Origin: a virus
Reading direction: 5' to 3' (one strand)
Length of the DNA: 64,000 nt
IMG/VR virus record: IMGVR_UViG_3300005253_000015
Span: 47,457-111,456 of that record
Shown: piece by piece, positions 2,950 through 16,952 of the stretch
Numbering within the stretch: position 1 is the first letter of the stretch
Layout of the letters: the number at the start of each line of letters is the position of its first letter
Position numbers and translations under genes: made by a program
The notes under the pieces: generated by a model
Databases searched by the model: none
Seen by the model: only the letters and a program-made list of their open reading frames with translations
Told to the model about the DNA's origin: nothing

Positions 2950-5900
2950 ATGGCTGGTAAAGGTTCAAAACAACTTGTTCGGGAACTCATTAATTTCTAT
3001 AAGGTAAATAGAGGTGGATATCCATACGAGATTATTTATAAATTAATCCAACTCTATCAAGTAATAGAAGATGTATACTCCGTCTCCACTGTGATAGAAC
3101 TCCAAGAAGCTATTGATAATATAGGAACTGATGCTGGTACTATTTTTATAGCTTCTGGAACTTATGATGTCACTACAACAATAGATATTGATAATTGTGG
3201 TTCACTTGTTATATATGGGCATGGAGACAATACAATTCTTAAAGCCGCTGATGGTATTACGATATTTAATATAACATGTGTTGCTTCTTGTCTAATAAAG
3301 ACATTAAAATTGGATATTACTAACTATACGGGAGATACTCAAGCCGTTTTAATTAATGAAACTAATAATAATATTGTTGGTTTTGAAGATGTATCTATTC
3401 TTGGAGCAGCGGCAAATGGTATAGGCATTGAAGTTCAATCCGATAACTGTTATATTGACCAATGTAATATACTACAAATGAAAACGGGCATTTATTTGAA
3501 TGGAGCTGAGAAAACAAAAATAACTGGAACTCTCTCTGGTCTTCATGTTAATTACGGGCTTCATTTAAATCAAGCAGATTTTAGTATTATTACTGGAAAT
3601 TCTTTTACTGCTAATACTTCTTATGGTATATATATTTATAATAGTGATTATTGTATTATTTCCAATACTGGATGTACGAGTAATCTTACTGGAATGTATT
3701 CGGATATTTCAAATTATAATACAATATCATCATGTTTATCTAATAGTAATTCGGAAAATGGTATATTTATAACTCAAGGCAATTATAATACAATATCAAG
3801 TAATACATTAAACAACAATGACTCTAATATAGCTGGTAATACTGCTGGATTATATATCACTAATAACTCTGATTTTAATACTATAACTGCTAACTCTATT
3901 AATAATAACAATAATTCTGGTGCTGGTACTGCTTACGGTATCTATATTGCTACAGCTGATTGTGATGAGAATGTAGTTGCCTCTAATAATGCTAACGGGA
4001 ATGATGTAGATTATCAAGACTCTGGAACATCCACAACTGTAATATATTATGTTCAAAATAGTGATGAGCTTCAAGACGCAATAGACTCTATTGGTTCTAG
4101 TGCTGGGACAATATACATTAATTCTAGCTTTACTGTATCAACTACTATTGATATTGATGGTGGTGGAAGCTATCTTATCGAAGGCGAAGGTAGTAATACA
4201 GTTTTAACTACTGGTATTGATATAAAATGTTTGAATGTAGACCTAGCTCGTCAATGTATATTACGGAACTTCAGAATTGACGCTAGTGCGTATACTGCTG
4301 CTGGTGTGGCACTGGAAATAATAGATGTTAATGAGAATAATAATGATTTAGTTATATTAGATAATGTATCTATTACTGGAGATGGTACTAATGGATACGG
4401 AATTGAATTAAATTCTAACAATTGTAGGATTGAAAATTGTGAGATAGATAATATAAGTATCGGTATTAATATTTTATCAACTAATAATATAATCTCTGGT
4501 AATAATGTTAATAACTGTAATACATATGGGATTCAAATAAGCTCAGCTAATACTAACAATGTAACAACAAACATCGTAGATAGCAACACAACTGGTATAT
4601 ATTTATCATCATCTGATTATGTTTTAGTAAGTGGGAATTCAGTAAACACTAATACTGAAAACGGTATAGAGCTCACTGGTAGTGATTATACTAATATTAG
4701 TGGGAATTCATGTATAGGGAATGATTCAAGTACAGCAAATCCTCAAGCTGGAATGTATATAAGCACAGACTCTAACAATAATAGTATTATTGGAAACACT
4801 ATTATCAATAATAATAATGCTGGTGCTGGAATTGGATACGGAGTATATATAGGAACAGCTACTTGTGATGAGAATATAGTTCGCTCTAATAATATTTCTG
4901 GAAATGATACACAGTGGGGTGATACTGGTACTAATACTCAAATAGAATATTTCTGTCTAACTGAGGGTCATATACAAGATGCTGTAGATTCTATAGCTGG
5001 TAAGGCTGGTACGATAATTATTGGAGAGGTTACCATTGCTATTACAACTGGCATAACTGTAGATAATGCTACCGCAAAGATACGCATTATTGGGAAAGGA
5101 CAACCATCTATATTACAACCAACTATTGGTATCACAGTATTTACATTTACAAATGCTTATGAGCTTCATTTAGAAGCCTTTTATATAGATATGGATAATT
5201 ATACAGCAGATACTACAAAAGCAATATTCAATAATGGTGCTAATTGTTTAAGACAAACTTACGAAGATATAACATTCGAGGGAACAGCTGATGGGATTGC
5301 GATATATAATTCTGGTGATTCTATTACTGTTAATAATTGTTATTTTAACAATGTATTTAATTGTATATACATTACGGGTTCTGTTGTAGCTTTTAAAATC
5401 ACTGGTAACGAATTCTGGACTATTAGAGATAGTTCTGTTTATATTGATTATGGTGAACAAGGTGTTATTGCCAATAATATAGCTGATGCTACTGGTGGTA
5501 AACCCGTTATAGATGTAATTCGAGGTAAATATATATCTATATCAAATAATCAAATCATTACGGGTGGAAGTACAGCTACTAATGGTTCATCAATACAAAT
5601 AACTGGTGCTGTTGCCAGTAGTGATATTCAGATAGTAGGTAATACCATCAGAAGTACAAATTCAAGTGGCACTACTAATAGTATGGTATACATGAGTGGT
5701 ACTGTTTCTCGAATAACAATATCTTCTAATGTAATCATTTCCTATACTAATAGTGATGATTCTTGGGGTATAATAATAGAGGATGCTACAGTTATAGATT
5801 GTACTATCACTGGGAATAGTATTTATGCTTTCGGGGGTATTAAAGTAGTAAATGCTGATAATATGGTTATCTCTGGGAACAAAATTACTGGTAATACTTC

Positions 5901-6411
5901 TTTAAAACAATCTGGTATATTATTAGAAGGGTCAATTGGAAATGCAATAACATCAAATATTATTGATGGAGTATCTGTTAACTTTGGTACGGATGTCAAT
6001 GGGATATCATTAACTTCCGTATCGACTGATAATATTATTGCGAACAATCGAATACTTGATATGGCTAATGCGGGAGCTGGAGATGGTTATGGAATAATTA
6101 TAGCTGCGGGATGTAATAATAATGTTATATCTGGAAATGTAATTACGAGTTGTGATACTAACTTGTCTGATGCGGGGACTGGAACTATATTATTTGGCGA
6201 TGATACTGCCTACGGAGCTGGTTGGAACGGGGACTTAGGCACTCCGACCAAGAATGTTATATATGACCAATTTGTAGCTACTTTAGCTGCTGCTGTTGCT
6301 TTAATATCTGATACTGCTTATGCGGCAAGTTGGGATGGAGTCACTACAATTGCTCCGAGTAAGAATGCTGTATATGATAAAATACAAGCTCTTATTGCTG
6401 TATGGGGTTAA
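2950..6411 (+). CDS. Large beta-helix (pectin lyase/NosD-like) spike or adhesin with three tandem beta-helix modules
   Basis: Three caps (ELQEAIDNIGTDAGTIFI, ELQDAIDSIGSSAGTIYI, HIQDAVDSIAGKAGTIII), Asn-ladder GIY/ISGN rungs, two C-terminal APSKNAVYDK-type modules. Confidence 0.8.
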   Translation: MAGKGSKQLVRELINFYKVNRGGYPYEIIYKLIQLYQVIEDVYSVSTVIELQEAIDNIGTDAGTIFIASGTYDVTTTIDIDNCGSLVIYGHGDNTILKAADGITIFNITCVASCLIKTLKLDITNYTGDTQAVLINETNNNIVGFEDVSILGAAANGIGIEVQSDNCYIDQCNILQMKTGIYLNGAEKTKITGTLSGLHVNYGLHLNQADFSIITGNSFTANTSYGIYIYNSDYCIISNTGCTSNLTGMYSDISNYNTISSCLSNSNSENGIFITQGNYNTISSNTLNNNDSNIAGNTAGLYITNNSDFNTITANSINNNNNSGAGTAYGIYIATADCDENVVASNNANGNDVDYQDSGTSTTVIYYVQNSDELQDAIDSIGSSAGTIYINSSFTVSTTIDIDGGGSYLIEGEGSNTVLTTGIDIKCLNVDLARQCILRNFRIDASAYTAAGVALEIIDVNENNNDLVILDNVSITGDGTNGYGIELNSNNCRIENCEIDNISIGINILSTNNIISGNNVNNCNTYGIQISSANTNNVTTNIVDSNTTGIYLSSSDYVLVSGNSVNTNTENGIELTGSDYTNISGNSCIGNDSSTANPQAGMYISTDSNNNSIIGNTIINNNNAGAGIGYGVYIGTATCDENIVRSNNISGNDTQWGDTGTNTQIEYFCLTEGHIQDAVDSIAGKAGTIIIGEVTIAITTGITVDNATAKIRIIGKGQPSILQPTIGITVFTFTNAYELHLEAFYIDMDNYTADTTKAIFNNGANCLRQTYEDITFEGTADGIAIYNSGDSITVNNCYFNNVFNCIYITGSVVAFKITGNEFWTIRDSSVYIDYGEQGVIANNIADATGGKPVIDVIRGKYISISNNQIITGGSTATNGSSIQITGAVASSDIQIVGNTIRSTNSSGTTNSMVYMSGTVSRITISSNVIISYTNSDDSWGIIIEDATVIDCTITGNSIYAFGGIKVVNADNMVISGNKITGNTSLKQSGILLEGSIGNAITSNIIDGVSVNFGTDVNGISLTSVSTDNIIANNRILDMANAGAGDGYGIIIAAGCNNNVISGNVITSCDTNLSDAGTGTILFGDDTAYGAGWNGDLGTPTKNVIYDQFVATLAAAVALISDTAYAASWDGVTTIAPSKNAVYDKIQALIAVWG

Positions 6412-6468: not shown

Positions 6469-7389
6469 ATGAAGAAAATAGAGTTTAAAAGACAGTTTTT
6501 TATAAAAGATTTATTCATACCTGAAAGAGTTATTAATTGTTTTAATTGTATTGAATTTGAATCTTATCAAATATTTAGTTATTGTATTGAGAATGATTTG
6601 TTTATAATCCCAGAGAATGGGTTTATATTTATACCAATAAAGAGTATATCTGATTATAAAAGTATGGTTAAGATATTTAACGAAACTAATATATGTAATA
6701 ATAGCTATTTATATTTAATAATAGAAGAACAATCCCTTCTTGATGCGGTACTTTCCACTATTGTAGATAAAAGGTTTAGTATTTTAATCACTAAAGATTT
6801 AAAAATAGATTTTGTTAAGTACTGGAATAATACAATTGGAAAAGAATGGATTTCTAAAAACAGAATCATTAAAAAGATAAAAATAGACTATCCTAATTAT
6901 GATAGACAAATTAATGAAATGATTAGTATATTCAATGAGGAATTTATAAGATTTTTCTTATTAGATTTTGATTATGTATCATTTGAAAAGATAAAAATAG
7001 AAGAGATACACAAACTAAAATTCTGGATACGTAATTTTATTGGCTGGACAAAATTAAAAGATGTTGATTCAATAGAAATCATATCAACTCCATTTGTTAG
7101 AAAGATTTTTGTTTCTGATGAGTTGGTCTTATATATGGATAATAAGAAAAAAGACATATGGTCATTTGATTTAATGTTATATTTAAAAGACGATGGAGAA
7201 AGTATGCCAATGAGAGAGCTCAATCTTCTTAGGAAATATATTGACTTTGTACCAAATGCTATGTACACAGAATCTAAAATAACAAATTGGTTTTTAATGG
7301 ATTATGCTCAATGTAAAGAAATTCAGGGAAGTTTAAATGAAATACCATTAATGATGGGATTAATAAATAGGTGGTTATATGATTTTTAA
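6469..7389 (+). CDS. Putative inactive radical-SAM-like partner (no CxxxCxxC)
   Basis: Translationally coupled to the rSAM gene; alternating beta/alpha pattern and RKIFVSDELVLY resemble an rSAM barrel end and SPASM hairpin; inference. Confidence 0.45.
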   Translation: MKKIEFKRQFFIKDLFIPERVINCFNCIEFESYQIFSYCIENDLFIIPENGFIFIPIKSISDYKSMVKIFNETNICNNSYLYLIIEEQSLLDAVLSTIVDKRFSILITKDLKIDFVKYWNNTIGKEWISKNRIIKKIKIDYPNYDRQINEMISIFNEEFIRFFLLDFDYVSFEKIKIEEIHKLKFWIRNFIGWTKLKDVDSIEIISTPFVRKIFVSDELVLYMDNKKKDIWSFDLMLYLKDDGESMPMRELNLLRKYIDFVPNAMYTESKITNWFLMDYAQCKEIQGSLNEIPLMMGLINRWLYDF

Positions 7390-8554
7390 TGTTGTGTGTC
7401 CAGATATTTTGATTTCAACAAATTGTAATATGAGATGTAAGTATTGTTTTGAGAAGGATAAAATTAACGAGGTTATGGATGAAGAAAGAATATTAGAATA
7501 TTATTCACATAATCCCTGTACAGGAACATTTCCTATTGGTGGTGAACCTTTTCTAAATTTAGATTTACTCTTCAAAATAATGGATACAGTAGAAAATAAT
7601 AAAATTATACAAGAGAAAAGAAAAAAAACGTTATTACAGAATTTAAAATGTGTTATTACTAATGGAACTTTAATTAAACAAAACATACAGAAGATTAAGG
7701 ATTATGGATTAATATTACAGATAAGTTTCGATGGTTCTAAAAAAGTTCATGATACTTATAGGGTTTTTCCTAATGGAAAGGGAACGTATGATAAAATCAT
7801 TGAAGGATTAGAACTTTGCGTAAAAGAAGGAATTGAATGGTCTATTCATGGTGTTGTAGCTAAAGATACTATTAAATATTTCTATGATACGTTTGTATGG
7901 TTTTTTGAGATATATAAAAAATACAAAGAATTAGATATAGCAATAGATTTTATGAAGAATAACGTATTTCAAGTAATATTCGAACAAGATTATTCTGATA
8001 AAGATGTTGATGAACTAGTCAGACAGTTTCATAAAATTGCTGAATGGATTTATTCAAGAGATTATATGACTATTAAACAAAAAGACCAATTATTTCATAA
8101 CTTCTTAGAAAGACGTGGTGGTGTTTGTTCAGCTGGAACAACATTAATAGCTTTTGATAATAATTTAGATATGTTTCCATGTCATAGACTTGCTGTTGTA
8201 CCAGAGAAAGAAAATTATTACCTAGGAAATGCTATGGATATTAAGACTATTAAAAATTTCAAACAATATAACTCTTACTATAATATTGGGAGAGGTTATA
8301 AATACATGTATTCAGCTATACAACATAACCACGATTACAAAGACAAGGAGAGTTTGAGATGGTTTATGTGGTGTCCTGCTACAAATTTACAAACATCTGA
8401 AAATGTTTATTATCAGAATGCTAAATATAATGTGATGTTTGTTGAAGTAAATAGAATGGTTAGAGCACTTAAGAAAATATATTATCAAAATAGTGATTTA
8501 ATAAAAGAAAAGGATAATGCCAATAAGCTCAGGAAGCCCGATACTAGCAAGTGA
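7379..8554 (+). CDS. Radical SAM peptide/protein maturase with Twitch/partial SPASM domain
   Basis: CNMRCKYC, GGEPFL, ITNGTLI, ISFDGSKKVHD.YR, CSAG...FPCHRL, WCPATN. Confidence 0.93.
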   Translation: MIFNVVCPDILISTNCNMRCKYCFEKDKINEVMDEERILEYYSHNPCTGTFPIGGEPFLNLDLLFKIMDTVENNKIIQEKRKKTLLQNLKCVITNGTLIKQNIQKIKDYGLILQISFDGSKKVHDTYRVFPNGKGTYDKIIEGLELCVKEGIEWSIHGVVAKDTIKYFYDTFVWFFEIYKKYKELDIAIDFMKNNVFQVIFEQDYSDKDVDELVRQFHKIAEWIYSRDYMTIKQKDQLFHNFLERRGGVCSAGTTLIAFDNNLDMFPCHRLAVVPEKENYYLGNAMDIKTIKNFKQYNSYYNIGRGYKYMYSAIQHNHDYKDKESLRWFMWCPATNLQTSENVYYQNAKYNVMFVEVNRMVRALKKIYYQNSDLIKEKDNANKLRKPDTSK

Positions 8555-9293
8555 TGTAAATGCTATTATCGCTAAGATAAATTCAGAGGAAAATAATAGA
8601 ACTGGGTTAGGTCTGTCTGATTTACCAGATATGATTGTTAGTAATCCTTGTTTGGCTTCAGACCACGATTCTTGGAGAACTCGTAATGATGCTATTAATG
8701 CTTTTCATTGTTATTGTGAAGCAGATGGAGGGCGTGATGCTGGTGATACTACTAAGACAGGTACAACATTAGGTCTAACTGCTCCTAATGTTACTTCTGG
8801 TAATTCAATGTTAGCTTCTCAACTTACAACTTTAGAAACAGATATAGATAATTTAGTAGCTCAATGTGATTGTGATACTTATGTTTGTAGTTGTGTAGGT
8901 AATTGTACTACTGTTTGTACTTGTAATACAAATGTATGTACTTGTGTAGGTAATTGTACTAGTGTCTGTTCTTGTAATACTAATGTTTGTACTTGTGTTT
9001 CCCAATGTGGTTGTAATACTAATGTATGTACTTGTGTAAGTCAAGGGTGTGCCTGTAATACTATTAGAACACCTGAATGTCTTGATTGGACATTCATATG
9101 TGGTTGCCAAAGTCAGGGGTGTAGTTGTAATCAATTATGTACTTGCGTAAATCAAGGCTGTGGTTGTAATCAATTGTGTACATGTGTAAGCAATGTGATT
9201 GCACAGTGTACTTGTAATCAATTGTGTACATGTGTAAGTAATGTGATTGCACAGTGTACTTGTAATAAAGTCTGTGGGTGTGAATATAACTAA
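8517..9293 (+). CDS. Cys-rich CxC-repeat protein, probable radical SAM target and possible virion fibre
   Basis: 39 Cys in residues 117-255 (18 CxC plus 3 single); Cys-poor leader with three xxxLASxxxxxxxxIN-like segments; overlaps the rSAM 3' end. Confidence 0.85.
   Translation: MPISSGSPILASDVNAIIAKINSEENNRTGLGLSDLPDMIVSNPCLASDHDSWRTRNDAINAFHCYCEADGGRDAGDTTKTGTTLGLTAPNVTSGNSMLASQLTTLETDIDNLVAQCDCDTYVCSCVGNCTTVCTCNTNVCTCVGNCTSVCSCNTNVCTCVSQCGCNTNVCTCVSQGCACNTIRTPECLDWTFICGCQSQGCSCNQLCTCVNQGCGCNQLCTCVSNVIAQCTCNQLCTCVSNVIAQCTCNKVCGCEYN
8892..8993 (+). repeat. 51-bp tandem duplication in the N-proximal arm of the Cys ladder
   Basis: TGTGTAGGTAATTGTACTA... at 8892 and 8943 (CVGNCTxVCxCNTNVCT twice). 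Confidence 0.85.
9165..9260 (+). repeat. 48-bp tandem duplication in the C-proximal arm of the Cys ladder
   Basis: TGTAATCAATTGTGTACATGTGTAAG(C/T)AATGTGATTGCACAGTGTACT twice, one mismatch. Confidence 0.92.
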
Positions 9294-9709
9294 TGGTAGA
9301 TAAAGAAACTTATTGGAAGAAAGTTAATTTTATAGTAGATACTTCCATCTTTATTAGAAACGGAGCTTGTAATCGTTGTGGTAAATGTTGTTATGCGTAT
9401 GATGAAGAACATCCCCCAGAAGAGGGAATAAAAGTTCCATGTACTAAATTAAGTTATGATGGTGCTTTAGCAATATGTGGAATTCAAGAAAATAAATATC
9501 AAATCTGTAAAGATAATCCGATTTATCCTACACCATGTATGGTTTCAGAAGCTGTTGATACTTGTGGATATTCTTGGGTAGTTGATAATAGTTTAACAAA
9601 AACAAAAGCATTGGATAAGTTTAATATTATATGTGATGTTTGTCATAGAAAAGAACCATGTACTTATTACGATAAAATAGTTAATGAAATAAATGAGGTG
9701 TGTAAATAA
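9293..9709 (+). CDS. YkgJ/CxxCxxCC family putative Fe-S or Zn-binding protein
   Basis: CNRCGKCC...PCTKL...CGIQENKYQICKDNP pattern; extra CDVCHRKEPC; TAATG coupling to the Cys-rich gene. Confidence 0.75.
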   Translation: MVDKETYWKKVNFIVDTSIFIRNGACNRCGKCCYAYDEEHPPEEGIKVPCTKLSYDGALAICGIQENKYQICKDNPIYPTPCMVSEAVDTCGYSWVVDNSLTKTKALDKFNIICDVCHRKEPCTYYDKIVNEINEVCK

Positions 9710-9777
9710 TAATTCTAAAAAATGCGTCTATAATAACTTTTAACGATTCTACTGTTGAAGTAGAGGATACTGATATT

Positions 9778-10080
9778 ATGGTGAATTCTGATATTCATAT
9801 GTATTATTATCATATAAGACCCCCTAATTTTGACTTTACATCTAAGTCTATACATTTTATAGTTAAGTTTATGAAGAATATTATGGATTTTATACATGGT
9901 ATTGAATCAGGTTATAGGCTTTGTTGTATTATATCATACCTACGAGGAAAGGCTAAGTTCATAAGACCAACACACCAGTATTTTTGTTATAAATGCCAAG
10001 ACAAAATTAAAAAAGGTATTTATAGACATCGTAAGAGACTACTTAAAATTAGAAAAGAATGGAAAGGTCTAGGTAACTAG
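9778..10080 (+). CDS. Hypothetical protein
   Basis: GAGG RBS; GYRLCCI and CYKC motifs. Confidence 0.5.
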   Translation: MVNSDIHMYYYHIRPPNFDFTSKSIHFIVKFMKNIMDFIHGIESGYRLCCIISYLRGKAKFIRPTHQYFCYKCQDKIKKGIYRHRKRLLKIRKEWKGLGN

Positions 10081-11588: not shown

Positions 11589-12869
11589 ATGGCTATAATT
11601 CAAAGAAGTGGGGCTTCAAGAATAGACCCAGACACTATTAGATTTGTTGATAGACTAGACACAGACTTATCTCATTATTTTGAGATTAATGTTGACGATA
11701 CTAATAATTTGATTGATTTTCTTGCCAAGATAGGCGATTTTAGGTTTAAGGATGCTGATGATTCAGATAACTCTGATACCTTTCAGATAGTAGCTGATGA
11801 TGCTGGTGGCTCAGTAATACAGAAAACATCAATGATAACTGATGGAACAGTATACGATATAATAGCGACTGGTACTATTACTGGTGCTGTTGCTACTGTT
11901 GATATTGATTATATATCAATAGATTTAGATTCTTTAGTTCTTAATGATGCTGCTACAAGTGCTCTAACTATTGTTGGTCAGAGGATTGATTTTAATGGAG
12001 CTACTTTAACTGCTATAACATTATCTACTGTATATGGTCTATATATTGATATGCCTACTGGTTTAGGTGTAGCATCGAAGACTATGGAAGGAGCATATAT
12101 TATAGATGGTGAAGGACATATAGCTCATTTATGTAATGGTTCTATGGCTGTTTCTGCTATGGGTATAAACGAAGAAAAATATTATAAATGCGAAGATTTT
12201 GACGAAGAGGCTGCTGCTGTCACCCTAGAAGCTGGGTTAAGAACTGATGAATGGGCTCCTGGTGGTCTTAATGATACTGCTGCTGATGTAACTTATATTC
12301 AAGACCAAGGCGGAGTTATTCAATTAAAGTCACGAGCAGCAGATAATGACAGTACAGAGATTACTTGGTTAAGCACTGCTGTTAATATCGCATCTAATCC
12401 GATTTTAGAATTTCGAGTGAATGTTGATGCTATAACAGCTTCTCTTACTGGATTCTTTGTGGGAATAACTGAAACGGCAAATATTCAAAATATAAATGAT
12501 ATTGTTGGTGCTGTTGATGATTTCTATGTCGTTGGTATGAACAGCGATTTGGGTACTCCAGCAAATCTCAGAGCCTTTTCTGAGGATAATAATGGTGGAT
12601 TAGTTACTGATAATTTAGGTGTTGCTATTGCAGCTACTTGGTGTACCATAAGAATGGACTTTACTGATACTGAACAGCCTAGAGTATGGATTAATACCAC
12701 TGGTGGAGCAATTGACTCAAGTCATGAAATTGCTGCGGCAACTATTACTGGTACTGTACAAGACTCTATATATGTATTTCCAGTTATATTTGTTCAATGC
12801 TTAGATGTCACCCCAACTCAACGAACTTTACTAGTGGACTATTGCAAAATCTGGCAAGATAGAAGTTAA
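11589..12869 (+). CDS. Putative spike protein with C-terminal ConA/lectin-like domain
   Basis: GGTGA RBS; acidic and beta-rich; WCTIRMDF...VWIN and terminal LLVDYCKIWQDR. Confidence 0.6.
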   Translation: MAIIQRSGASRIDPDTIRFVDRLDTDLSHYFEINVDDTNNLIDFLAKIGDFRFKDADDSDNSDTFQIVADDAGGSVIQKTSMITDGTVYDIIATGTITGAVATVDIDYISIDLDSLVLNDAATSALTIVGQRIDFNGATLTAITLSTVYGLYIDMPTGLGVASKTMEGAYIIDGEGHIAHLCNGSMAVSAMGINEEKYYKCEDFDEEAAAVTLEAGLRTDEWAPGGLNDTAADVTYIQDQGGVIQLKSRAADNDSTEITWLSTAVNIASNPILEFRVNVDAITASLTGFFVGITETANIQNINDIVGAVDDFYVVGMNSDLGTPANLRAFSEDNNGGLVTDNLGVAIAATWCTIRMDFTDTEQPRVWINTTGGAIDSSHEIAAATITGTVQDSIYVFPVIFVQCLDVTPTQRTLLVDYCKIWQDRS

Positions 12870-14006: not shown

Positions 14007-14158
14007 AACCTAGTTTTATATATTATAAAATAGATATTAAATTAATAAATATAACTATTAACCCCATACAGCAATAAGAGCTTGTATTTTATCATAAACA
14101 GCATTCTTACTGGGAGCGATTGTAGTCACCCCATTCCAAGAGGCAGCATAAGCAGTAT
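14007..14158 (-). repeat. Right arm of inverted repeat (partner 6311..6462)
   Basis: Includes the fibre C-terminal codons, the stop and the intergenic region. Confidence 0.95.
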
Positions 14159-16952
14159 TAGAAGGAGCAGTATGTAGAGCAGTAACTTGTGCTGCTGTTA
14201 AGTGTTGTTCATTAACATTTCCATTGGGAAGTGTAATACTATCGTGTGTTAAATCTCCCCCTACAGTAGCAGCATGGTCTCTTGCCGCAATATCAACTCC
14301 GTCTACAGTTCCACTAACAGTTATATTACCAGTTATATCTAGACTTGCTACTCCAGCACCACTATTATTAATCGAAAAAACAGTAGCACCAGCATTCACC
14401 ATGTCTATAGATATACTCCCAGTAGTTGCAAAAGCAAAAGCTCCACCATTGCTATTAATACCATCAAATTGTAATGTATCTCCATCATGAACATGAGCTA
14501 CGGGGGCTGGTTGTGCTTGAAAGCTTGGGGCTGCTGCGACACCATTCCCAATCAGTATTGTTGCTGCTGCTCCAGTCGCTATTTCAGTCATAACACCAGC
14601 TCCATTAGTACAATATACCTTCCAATTATTAACTGCTGTAGGCATATTTGTGATACTAAGAGCAGATACATCAACGCCATCAACAGTCTCAGCTCCAGCC
14701 ATCGTAATATTAACGCCATTCATTTGTAGACCACCTGTTATTACTAAGGCATTAGCTTCTATATAAGCATGTGCCTCTGCGTCAGTATATTTTTGACCAA
14801 AAGCCATAGCATCTTGAGCCGCAGAACCATTACCAAGACCAGTTATTTTAGAAGTTCCCATAACGATTGGAATACCCATTGTTAATTCAGTGGCAGTCAT
14901 AGTCATTTTAGCAGAATTATTAATTCTAAAAACAACACTTTGACCAGTAGCAGCATTCAATAAAGTAAGTCCAGTAGCATTTTGTGCTAAAGCATAATTA
15001 GTTCCAGATAACATATCTCTATGACTAAAAACCATCCAATCAGCAGTCGTACTTCCTAATGCTGCTCTTCCAAAAGTAAAGGTTAAATCCTCATCGGCAG
15101 AAGTAATAACTTGAGTGCCGTGAAGGGTCATACCAGCCGAGTTGATTAGCGGAGTGTAATTATCCCCGACAGTATAATTAGGGTCTTCCTTCTCTCCATA
15201 AGCATCTAAATAAAAATAATCAGTAGAATCTCCAAAACATTTAATATGTATTCTATTTACACCAGAAACCATATTATCATCAGTAGAGACATTATTGGCT
15301 TCTAATACATCATTTACATATATATCTTGAGTGTTATCTGCTCTCCATACTAACTGAACATGATATAAAATATTATTTGAAACAACAATAAGAGCAACCC
15401 ACGCAGCTCCGTTATAATAATCCATACTACTTGCTGTTATACGGAGGCGATTTATATAACCGACGCCTCCTTCAAAAGTATAAAACTCCCAATATTTTGT
15501 TACATCATTAGTTCCAATCCAGAATTCATGAGTTCCACTTGTAGCCTGAGTTATGCTATGATATATGGTTGGATCTTCTCCTCCAGTAGCATCATCTTGT
15601 AATCGTAATACTTTTTTATGACCTTGCCATTCATCAACAATAATACATTCTCCATCATAGAGAGTTGCTGCATCTATAAATGGTATATCTGTACCTTCCG
15701 TACCTACAGGCACATCCTTAAAATTATATGTAGCCCAGAATATTCCAGCTTCAATCCCACCTTTTATATTTCCTATGCTCTTTATATCGTTTCCATCCAT
15801 AACAATATTGCCACTCATCTGTCCGCCAGTAAGGGGTAGCATTAAGTCTGCATATTCCTTTACTGTAGTATTTGTAGGAACTTTTACATCACTGTTAGCT
15901 AATGCGGCAATATCGCCCAACGTAGTTATAGTAGCCCCAGTACCTATTTTTATACTTGATTTAACGGTTAATATTCCACCTGTGGTAAGACTCATAGCAC
16001 CATCATTTTGGGCATCATCAGAATCTCTCCAAACAAATCCTCTATCAGCATCAGGGTTCATAGTAAAGGTCATAGCCCAGTCATTAAGTCCTCCATAGGT
16101 CATAGCACTATGCATACCAATAGTATAAACACTCAAATTATATACTCTAAGTTTGTCGTAATCTGATTCGGCTCGAGTTGATATTCTATTAACATTGTTG
16201 ATATCATAAAAACCCATATCAATATCACCATTCATAGTATCCCCAACAAGTTTAAGATAAACATCTGCTGCCGCTATTGCTGCAACAGCTTCAGCATCTG
16301 TATAGACTGCATGAAGTGCAGCCACTTGAGCAGCAGAAATATGTTCATAGACAGTACCAGCATTTATATTAGCTAAGTCATTATGATTTAAATCTCCTGC
16401 TACTGTCGCAGTATGATGTGCAGTAGCAACCCCTGTATGAGTGGATATTAAAGCATCTATTGCAATATCAATAGTACCAGCGGGATTAGTATTTTGCACA
16501 ACAATTCTTGCATCTACTTCTGCATCAGTGTATTTAGCATGATGGTCTCCAGCTATTGCTTTATGTGTTGCTATTAGTGAATCTATAGCATTATCTATGG
16601 ATTGACCATCTACTATTTCTGCTATAATAATAGTTTCTACTTCTGTAGTTGTGCTATTAGCATCTATTAATATATCCATTGCAGCTATCTTGTCATAAAC
16701 AGCATTTTGACTTGGAGCATGTGTAGTGTCTCCATTCCAACCAACTCCATAGACATCATCCTCTATTAATGCTACGGCAGCAGCGGCTATTGATTCGATT
16801 TTGTCATATACAGCATTCTTGCTGGGTGCTACATCAGTAATAGCATTCCAAGCAGCAGCATATACATCATCGGATATTAATTCGTCAATAGCCTTAATTA
16901 TCTCGATGTCTACATTCTCATTTAGCATAAGTCGTCTAAAATTATTACTCAT
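14058..16952 (-). CDS. Mosaic fibre/adhesin with His-rich shaft repeats and an internal lectin-like domain
   Basis: YTDAE x3, TVDGVD x2, H(I/L)xAAQVxALH x2, YLKLVGDTMNGDI/LPLTGGQMSGNI fibre motifs, APS(K/Q)NAVYDKI x3. Confidence 0.8.
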   Translation of the reverse strand: MSNNFRRLMLNENVDIEIIKAIDELISDDVYAAAWNAITDVAPSKNAVYDKIESIAAAAVALIEDDVYGVGWNGDTTHAPSQNAVYDKIAAMDILIDANSTTTEVETIIIAEIVDGQSIDNAIDSLIATHKAIAGDHHAKYTDAEVDARIVVQNTNPAGTIDIAIDALISTHTGVATAHHTATVAGDLNHNDLANINAGTVYEHISAAQVAALHAVYTDAEAVAAIAAADVYLKLVGDTMNGDIDMGFYDINNVNRISTRAESDYDKLRVYNLSVYTIGMHSAMTYGGLNDWAMTFTMNPDADRGFVWRDSDDAQNDGAMSLTTGGILTVKSSIKIGTGATITTLGDIAALANSDVKVPTNTTVKEYADLMLPLTGGQMSGNIVMDGNDIKSIGNIKGGIEAGIFWATYNFKDVPVGTEGTDIPFIDAATLYDGECIIVDEWQGHKKVLRLQDDATGGEDPTIYHSITQATSGTHEFWIGTNDVTKYWEFYTFEGGVGYINRLRITASSMDYYNGAAWVALIVVSNNILYHVQLVWRADNTQDIYVNDVLEANNVSTDDNMVSGVNRIHIKCFGDSTDYFYLDAYGEKEDPNYTVGDNYTPLINSAGMTLHGTQVITSADEDLTFTFGRAALGSTTADWMVFSHRDMLSGTNYALAQNATGLTLLNAATGQSVVFRINNSAKMTMTATELTMGIPIVMGTSKITGLGNGSAAQDAMAFGQKYTDAEAHAYIEANALVITGGLQMNGVNITMAGAETVDGVDVSALSITNMPTAVNNWKVYCTNGAGVMTEIATGAAATILIGNGVAAAPSFQAQPAPVAHVHDGDTLQFDGINSNGGAFAFATTGSISIDMVNAGATVFSINNSGAGVASLDITGNITVSGTVDGVDIAARDHAATVGGDLTHDSITLPNGNVNEQHLTAAQVTALHTAPSNTAYAASWNGVTTIAPSKNAVYDKIQALIAVWG

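Follow-up and report, generated by a model that had tools for sequence, protein, structure and literature searches.

Can a virus carry its own machinery for crosslinking a whole protein through thioether bonds, and what would such a protein do among tail genes? This question is raised by a block of four genes at positions 6469-9709 of a stretch of viral DNA from a marine-sediment metagenome. The stretch analysed here (the window) is 64,000 nt long and constitutes the 3' 64 kb of IMG/VR virus record IMGVR_UViG_3300005253_000015, a 111,456-bp record with direct terminal repeats. It occurs in marine-sediment metagenome runs, and no RNA data set was listed as containing it. The four genes encode a radical S-adenosylmethionine (SAM) enzyme, a 306-aa partner, a protein with a ladder of closely spaced cysteines and a small CxxCxxCC protein, and together they make up a single functional unit. 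Their arrangement exceeds chance by far, with its gene order repeated in 14 other independent virus or metagenome loci at 31-70% protein identity. Our best explanation, which we hold as a whole at about an even chance, is that this unit is a maturation cassette that serially staples a Cys-ladder protein of the tail or baseplate with thioether bonds.

A conserved four-gene cassette

The first-pass annotation of this DNA described four tightly coupled genes, two of which encode a 258-aa protein with 42 Cys and a CxxCxxCC protein. All four open reading frames (ORFs) are present where it placed them. They overlap successively by 11, 38 and 1 nt and are therefore translationally coupled. The features of the cassette are as follows.

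6469-7389, plus strand: 306-aa partner with a maturase fold and no iron-sulfur (Fe-S) cysteines, a predicted pseudo-enzyme (AlphaFold2, Foldseek, VIA-align)
7379-8554, plus strand: 391-aa radical SAM enzyme with a Twitch-like C-terminal domain and no N-terminal recognition element (RRE) for peptides made on the ribosome and modified after translation (RiPPs) (Pfam, NCBIfam, alignment)
8517-9293, plus strand: Cys-ladder protein, 258 aa, 42 Cys
8517-8864, plus strand: N-terminal domain of the Cys-ladder protein, 116 aa, three strand-helix segments, near-invariant H-C-Y-C-E (AlphaFold2, alignments A4 and A6)
8865-9293, plus strand: Cys-ladder region, 18 C-x-C units (spacing analysis)
9293-9709, plus strand: CxxCxxCC protein, 138 aa, motif CNRCGKCC, 8 invariant Cys (alignment A5)

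Viral and metagenome contigs were pattern-scanned with the enzyme and Cys-ladder alignments, which returned 19 loci, and the gene order of each locus was read by tblastn and ORF clustering. In 15 of 15 independent loci whose contig has this DNA (the window is one of them), the Cys-ladder gene is directly preceded by the enzyme gene, so that the pairing of a radical SAM gene with a Cys-rich neighbor, first proposed from the window by itself, holds when tested. A homolog of the 306-aa protein is found in every locus with enough DNA, and it is positioned upstream of the enzyme everywhere except in L023, where it is downstream. The CxxCxxCC gene adjoins the Cys-ladder gene in seven loci, on its 3' side in the window, L002 (two copies), L006, L008, L011 and L019, and on its 5' side in L005. 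The proteins of the relatives are 26-70% identical to those of the window, and the shared layout therefore reflects conservation, not recent copying. The 306-aa family amounts to 20 clusters among 5.8 billion, some of them on the same contigs as Cys-ladder members. When 185,579 species were scanned, with one genome for each, the matches listed were mostly generic radical SAM proteins and SCIFF-like maturases, and no enzyme homolog above 28% identity was among them; no member of a more distant Cys-ladder subgroup was found in the viral-contig scan.

Several loci show variations of this layout. In two distant relatives, L017 (2101-3054) and L023 (7664-8683), both on the plus strand, the gene right after the Cys-ladder gene encodes a second, different radical SAM protein (13 Cys; Radical_SAM 1.2e-09). 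It takes the place of the CxxCxxCC gene, which was not found in either locus, and in L023 it is followed by the 306-aa homolog. The enzyme gene of L010, a 2148-bp contig, is in two ORFs (369-1502; 272 and 104 aa), through either a frameshift or an assembly error. The same contig is also deposited as Candidatus Bathyarchaeota archaeon (RLI44861.1), a label that may reflect a binned viral fragment. In L014, the Cys-ladder gene is apparently split into a 159-aa N-terminal part (3147-3626) and a 70-aa ORF (3635-3847) with the conserved C-terminal end.

The radical SAM enzyme

The enzyme passes the Pfam Radical_SAM model (PF04055; 55.2 bits, cut-off 29.5) and contains a CX3CX2C motif (C16/C20/C23), C250-SAG and P-C268-H. 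The only invariant cysteines in a 12-member alignment are C16, C20, C23, C250, C268 (P-C-H-R) and C332 (W-C-P). A SPASM domain is recognized by seven cysteines that include CX2CX5CX3C, a pattern present in none of the 12 sequences. As only three invariant cysteines lie beyond CX3CX2C and there is no CX2CX5CX3C, the C-terminal domain is, by its cysteine pattern, Twitch-like rather than SPASM, with one predicted auxiliary site of three Cys. The stretch C250...G...P-C268-H aligns to the first SPASM/Twitch element of CteB. The initial description of a CxxxCxxC enzyme with CSAG/PCH Twitch motifs is therefore right in its motifs and in the radical SAM assignment, and does not extend to a SPASM pattern. 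The enzyme lacks an RRE, as the protein starts at the cluster motif.

Among NCBIfam models, the enzyme scores best against PapB (NF047865; 111.7 bits, E 4e-32), far below the cut-off of 340. The CXXX-repeat maturase model (TIGR04115), to which the early reading had pointed as a check, comes second, with 79.4 bits (3.5e-22) lying far under its cut-off of 350. Weaker matches are to DynA, CefB, CcpM, anSME, the SCIFF maturase, QhpD (TIGR03906; 45.2 bits, cut-off 453) and TIGR04463 (49.6 bits over the core only, residues 13-163, cut-off 525), all far below the respective cut-offs. When the family profile is compared with solved structures, CteB is the first match (1.1e-29), followed by anSME (7.7e-21), and SkfB is also listed. 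These matches support placing the enzyme in the SPASM/Twitch peptide-maturase clade, where its nearest named and solved relatives (PapB, the CXXX-repeat maturase and CteB) make thioethers.

The partner protein

The 306-aa partner has no match in Pfam, NCBIfam (E <= 0.1) or PHROG, and its family has no invariant Cys in a nine-member alignment (A3). The AlphaFold2 (AF2) model of the protein has a predicted local distance difference test score (pLDDT) of 87.6 and a predicted template modeling score (pTM) of 0.87, and the top match returned by Foldseek is CteB (5why, E 4.4e-4). With VIA-align, the model gives a Z of 14.0 to CteB (root-mean-square deviation 3.7, 252 aligned), 13.2 to TigE, 10.5 to ChlB and 9.8 to anSME; SkfB is also among the structures matched. 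Generic TIM barrels reach a Z of about 7-8, and the CteB match spans both the barrel and the C-terminal domain. The protein was originally called motif-less, a description that misses the maturase fold of the model. When family profiles are compared with each other, the 306-aa proteins show no sequence link to the active enzymes (probability 0.3%), and likewise none to the second radical SAM protein of L023. We predict that the partner is a cluster-less protein with a radical-SAM-maturase fold, in other words a pseudo-enzyme, and as no sequence link to active enzymes was found, this reading comes entirely from the predicted fold.

The partner was also modeled in a three-chain complex job together with the enzyme and the N-terminal domain of the substrate. 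The partner, scored against the enzyme plus this domain, obtained 0.78, and the best of three controls obtained 0.00. The job used its own alignments and three chains, unlike the calibration, in which 58 of 80 solved complexes and 2 of 110 mismatched pairs attained the mark of 0.78. Separate runs show at least 96% contact agreement, with a partner pLDDT of at least 87. In the modeled interface, partner residues 1-15 and 243-291 face enzyme residues 202-222 and 295-368; residues 1-15 are the most conserved segment of the partner, and the enzyme side, made of conserved C-terminal helices, includes the invariant K349-Y350 helix. The model supports the predicted binding of the 306-aa partner to the active enzyme. 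No interface between the partner and the substrate N-terminal domain is reported in the complex model, which gives no verdict on binding between these two.

The Cys-ladder protein

The Cys-ladder protein has no match in Pfam, NCBIfam or PHROG. AF2 modeling on 60 sequences places most of residues 1-120 at block-mean pLDDT values of 87-97, with dips to 57-68 at residues 61-80. Helices are predicted at residues 11-27, 47-62 and 100-120, and each is opened by one of the three similar segments that had been noticed in the 116-aa leader. Conservation of this N-terminal domain is seen in alignments A4 and A6. The same segments had been likened to anchor motifs of viral structural proteins, and this likeness is not borne out. 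A profile of the domain (~115 residues) searched against 1.84 billion cluster representatives (50% identity) returns 80 proteins at E <= 0.001, nearly all of which are 150-350 aa long with a Cys-rich C-terminal part ending in C-x-C-E-[Y/F]. Because nearly all 80 matches are of the same family, the domain appears to be family-specific and not a shared virion anchor.

In the AF2 model, the Cys region that follows is unfolded (pLDDT below 50). Its 18 C-x-C units in the window are arranged 9 + 9 around the loop NTIRTPECLDWTFI. Across the family, the repeating unit has six residues, C-[T/S/G]-C-[N/D/E/Q]-x-x (a hexad), cysteines are overwhelmingly spaced by 1 and 3 residues, and C-x-C-E-[Y/F] forms a conserved end. 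Three residues after the first Cys of a CxC unit, N, D, E or Q is found in 87% of 1042 units, compared with a background of 31%. In degenerate repeats of P0005, the second Cys is gone and C-x-x-N or C-x-x-Q is retained. The region is 26% Cys and rich in Asp, Glu and Asn, with almost no Lys, Arg or aromatic residues.

As first suggested, the target is a protein and not a short peptide: it has 258 aa here, and its relatives have between 159 and 1120 aa and as many as 320 Cys. The largest homolog (L006, 2441-5803, plus strand; 1120 aa, 320 Cys) has about 150 hexads together with the same N-terminal domain and the same C-x-C-E-[Y/F] end. Other forms have 417 aa (L005) and at least 449 aa (L007). 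Within the Cys-ladder gene of the window, DNA is repeated in tandem, with units of 51 nt (x2.5, 87% matches) and of 48 nt (x2.1, 98% matches), at 8870-8998 and 9164-9266, which points to recent, ongoing duplication of Cys units. In 17 of 54 family members, the longest stretch without Cys lies in the center, compared with 9.3 +/- 2.8 for shuffled sequences, a modest excess among sequences that are related. A hairpin with mirrored long spacers across its two arms was also considered, and it is not a family feature (13 coincidences where 14.6 are expected, P 0.79).

The CxxCxxCC protein

Eight cysteines (C26, C29, C32, C33, C50, C62, C72 and C91) are invariant in the family of the 138-aa protein (alignment A5). 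The CxxCxxCC model PF03692, annotated as a zinc- or iron-chelating domain, is matched by 4 of 8 family members (best E 1.7e-4), and the window copy has no match at E <= 1; the YkgJ affiliation considered at first thus has matches in half of the family and none in the window copy. Judging from its relatives and its invariant cysteines, the protein probably belongs with the small Fe-S or Zn proteins of the YkgJ/UPF0153 kind. A reasonable guess is that it feeds electrons to the enzyme.

Genomic setting

The cassette had been described as lying among virion-fibre genes, and a placement among tail and fibre genes is what we observe both in the window and in the relatives. In the relatives, it is part of a co-directional block that begins with a protein placed by the ESM Atlas as a neighbor of Prophage_tail and Phage_base_V clusters (a lead) and continues with a tail protein (phrog_11660, 2.5e-13), the cassette, and then a gp25-like sheath initiator and Baseplate_J. 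The Baseplate_J model, which has a cut-off of 21.1, is passed with 70.7 bits (phrog_6, 1.3e-43), and the 26.7 bits obtained for Sheath_initiator are below its cut-off of 32.9. On these matches, the cassette of the relatives sits in a contractile-tail baseplate module. In the window, the cassette is flanked by a beta-helix protein on the 5' side and a fibre-like protein on the 3' side, and the neighboring features are as follows.

2950-6411, plus strand: 1153-aa right-handed beta-helix protein, tail-spike-like, upstream neighbor (Pfam NosD 6.9e-37, Beta_helix 2e-34)
9709-10080, plus strand: small conserved Cys-containing protein, downstream context (tblastn match to L019)
11589-12869, plus strand: 426-aa protein, receptor-binding/fibre-like as a lead (ESM Atlas)

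The 426-aa protein has no Pfam or PHROG match; its ESM Atlas neighbors carry Mtd_N, DUF2793 and SO2946-like_C at scores of 0.88-0.89, with structure template modeling (TM) values, by row, of 0.69-0.80. The ORF at 9709-10080, which has no Pfam match, shares 70% identity with an L019 ORF of 119 aa that is located two genes downstream of the CxxCxxCC gene. It has ATA at the position of the ATG of L019, and its first canonical start is 23 codons in (9778), so the gene either uses a rare start codon or has lost its start. A 964-aa protein at 14058-16952 (minus strand) clusters by BLAST with the 1153-aa beta-helix protein, and two spike-like paralogs therefore flank the region. The same virus genome contains a transposase gene (phrog_4285, 1.1e-42) outside the window, at 4654-5568 (minus strand) of the genome (L104).

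In L002 and L014, genes for sulfotransferases, nitroreductase-family proteins and short-chain dehydrogenases are interleaved with the cassette (in L014 at 485-1192, 3835-4548 and 5458-6369). The sulfotransferases are located at 8828-9481 and 10165-10848 in L002 and at 3835-4548 in L014. These interleaved genes may encode further tailoring enzymes or belong to an auxiliary island.

Proposed mechanism

From the gene linkage, folds, motif conservation and genomic position described above, we infer a thioether chemistry, a role for each of the two helper proteins and incorporation of the product into the virion. In this mechanism, a Twitch-type radical SAM enzyme would be held in a heterodimer by its cluster-less look-alike of 306 aa and would act repeatedly on the Cys-ladder protein. 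Most likely, hydrogen would be abstracted from the N, D, E or Q of each C-x-x-[N/D/E/Q] motif, and this acceptor would be joined to the preceding Cys as a non-alpha-carbon thioether (ranthionine). A three-Cys auxiliary cluster with an open iron has been proposed to bind a substrate cysteine in CteB and CrpC (PMC13692751), and the three-Cys cluster of the viral enzyme may offer an open iron to the substrate thiolate in the same manner. The CxxCxxCC protein would be a small metal or redox helper, for example an electron donor. The folded N-terminal domain would be kept, not cleaved, and the product would be a covalently stapled rod or ladder of variable length that is in, or assembles with, the tail/baseplate apparatus.

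Serial thioether stapling appears to be the best-supported reading of the chemistry, on the basis of homology-level resemblance, the motif and precedent. The viral hexad and CrpA, a Cys-rich repeat protein of a methanogen, share a C-x-x-acceptor geometry, which supports a ranthionine-type crosslink. The range from 159 to 1120 aa, reached by tandem duplication of units as in fibres and rulers, supports a structural role, and the position of the genes makes virion membership plausible. It is possible to be more specific, although we advance this version tentatively and regard it as less than likely: the Cys ladder would be the shaft of a tail/baseplate appendage (a needle, whisker or fibre), stapled hexad by hexad by a heterodimer in which one radical SAM protein is active and the other dead, and tuned in length by gain and loss of repeats, over a range of about 10 to more than 150 hexads.

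Several observations weigh against serial stapling of a virion protein. The reaction of the enzyme cannot be transferred by homology, as all curated family cut-offs failed, and anSME, its second-best structural relative, oxidizes Cys rather than crosslinking it. A CxC-rich, acidic and aromatic-poor sequence that AF2 leaves unfolded also fits metal-thiolate binding, and with two Cys per hexad and one conserved acceptor, half of the thiols are unexplained. A fold search with the N-terminal domain returned generic helical matches (best Z 6.9; three-repeat BARA domain 6.1) and is uninformative. With respect to location, gene position is the sole basis for virion membership, and the baseplate genes of the relatives have no copy detectable by tblastn in the window's own virus. 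Furthermore, sulfotransferase, short-chain dehydrogenase and nitroreductase genes surround the cassette in several relatives.

These last genes bring up the possibility that the cassette is auxiliary and non-structural, a Crp-like island in a tail-gene region whose modified Cys-rich protein acts in or on the infected cell. Outside the virion, the product could, for example, help to handle metals, iron-sulfur or sulfide or act as a redox buffer. We regard this as rather unlikely. For CrpA, its cellular precedent, metal binding is suspected and induction on pyrite is reported (PMC13692751), and the source of our DNA is a marine-sediment metagenome. The cassette has also moved between neighborhoods, the window's virus being without the baseplate genes of the relatives. 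However, the cassette lies inside co-directional tail/baseplate blocks of many diverged viruses and was not found in cellular reference genomes, among the matches listed, and growth over 159-1120 aa by repeat gain is more typical of structural rods than of cofactor handling.

The composition of the ladder could also be read as that of an oversized metallothionein-like rod, in which the CxC hexads bind metals or clusters and the radical SAM enzyme and CxxCxxCC protein serve cluster insertion or a minor modification. The Cys content of 26%, the CxC spacing, the scarcity of Lys, Arg and aromatics, the abundance of Asp, Glu and Asn and the unfolded AF2 model of the apo sequence are all in keeping with such a metal-thiolate or iron-sulfur ladder, as are the zinc- or iron-chelating annotation of the CxxCxxCC family and the excess of two Cys per hexad over a single conserved acceptor. 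It is improbable because a dedicated SPASM/Twitch maturase is nothing that metallothioneins or cluster proteins require, because the enzyme's closest named and solved relatives act on peptide C-H bonds next to Cys, and because the 87% N/D/E/Q at the +3 position from the first Cys matches the acceptor geometry of CrpA (PMC13692751). Finally, a diffusible RiPP, in which the 116-aa domain is a long leader (Nif11 or nitrile-hydratase-type) that is cleaved to release the Cys-rich core as a toxin or signal, would account for the leader-plus-core layout, the restriction of cysteines to the C-terminal part and the adjacent maturase, but is highly improbable given cores that reach about 1000 residues, a confidently folded and well-conserved N-terminal domain, the lack of a double-glycine or other conserved cleavage motif at the domain boundary, and the finding, in agreement with what was noted at the outset, that no protease, transporter or other exporter was found beside the cassette in the window or among the scanned neighbors of the relatives.

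Significance

It was only in 2026, in a methanogen, that experiments showed radical SAM enzymes crosslinking a whole protein through thioethers (PMC13692751). The putative viral version described here has its own enzyme family, a partner resembling a dead paralog and substrates with up to 320 cysteines, and its placement in tail and baseplate regions suggests a concrete role, that of a stapled virion appendage, for a modification so far without one. If serial stapling in the virion is correct, it would represent a new class of post-translationally crosslinked virion structure, one that would be covalently stable in sulfidic sediments with no need for oxygen or disulfide chemistry. An active maturase with a predicted cluster-less partner would also be a new two-protein enzyme architecture, and a compact, possibly processive enzyme pair that works on a simple six-residue repeat could serve protein stapling. 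More generally, radical SAM genes termed auxiliary in sediment viromes may be morphogenetic and not metabolic.

Comparison with known systems

The closest likeness is to the Crp system of Methanococcus voltae, in which CrpC (TIGR04463), an enzyme with an RRE and a full SPASM domain, makes ranthionine crosslinks on CrpA (PMC13692751). CrpA is a 28.8-kDa Cys-rich repeat protein of unknown biological role, and its crosslinks occur at motifs such as CAVD, where the Cys precedes the acceptor (PMC13692751). Both systems have a radical SAM maturase gene next to the gene of a large Cys-rich repeat protein, cysteines confined to C-terminal repeats behind a conserved N-terminal part, C-X-X-(Q/D)-type motifs with Cys before the acceptor, a product that is a protein, and a third adjacent protein with an unclear helper role. 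The two differ in several respects. The viral enzyme reaches only 49.6 bits on TIGR04463 and has no RRE and a three-Cys site, whereas CrpC has a seven-Cys SPASM domain. The viral partner is a predicted cluster-less protein with a maturase fold, while CrpB is a paralog of the substrate, and the viral system has a CxxCxxCC helper in addition. The repeat is a 6-residue C-x-C hexad in the virus and a 17-residue unit in CrpA, and the cassette is viral and located among tail genes.

PapB, of the freyrasin system (NF047865), is the best-scoring named family for the viral enzyme; it has a full SPASM domain and a short-peptide substrate with Cys-X3-Asp motifs. The viral motif is instead C-x-x-[N/D/E/Q], in proteins of 159-1120 aa. 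PapB serially forms non-alpha thioethers from Cys to Asp/Glu in repeated short motifs (PMC9413430). CteB, the SCIFF sactisynthase (5WGG/5WHY), is the closest solved structure both for the enzyme, by profile, and for the partner, by predicted fold. In contrast to the viral pair, it modifies a peptide of roughly 45 aa on its own, and it possesses two auxiliary clusters along with an N-terminal RRE. A precedent for a Twitch-type, thioether-forming maturase with a single auxiliary cluster is SkfB (Protein Data Bank 6EFN). QhpD, a radical SAM/SPASM enzyme, installs several Cys-to-Asp/Glu thioethers in QhpC, the gamma subunit of quinohemoprotein amine dehydrogenase, which is kept in a larger assembly. 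Unlike the viral target, QhpC is a small, non-repetitive enzyme subunit. The QhpD/QhpC pair has been cited as a precedent (PMC13692751).

The CXXX-repeat system (TIGR04115) likewise has three genes, for a maturase, a target with Cys repeats and an accessory protein whose role is unknown, but neither the 306-aa protein nor the viral target matches NCBIfam at E <= 0.1. Its targets are short peptides. A literature search found no relevant paper on the CXXX-repeat system and none on a viral or phage version of a thioether cassette, and in no solved or described system that we found is an active maturase accompanied by a cluster-less, paralog-like partner. Thioether chemistry of this kind has so far been shown only in cells, and the cassette described here is a distinct, putative viral version of the systems that carry it out.

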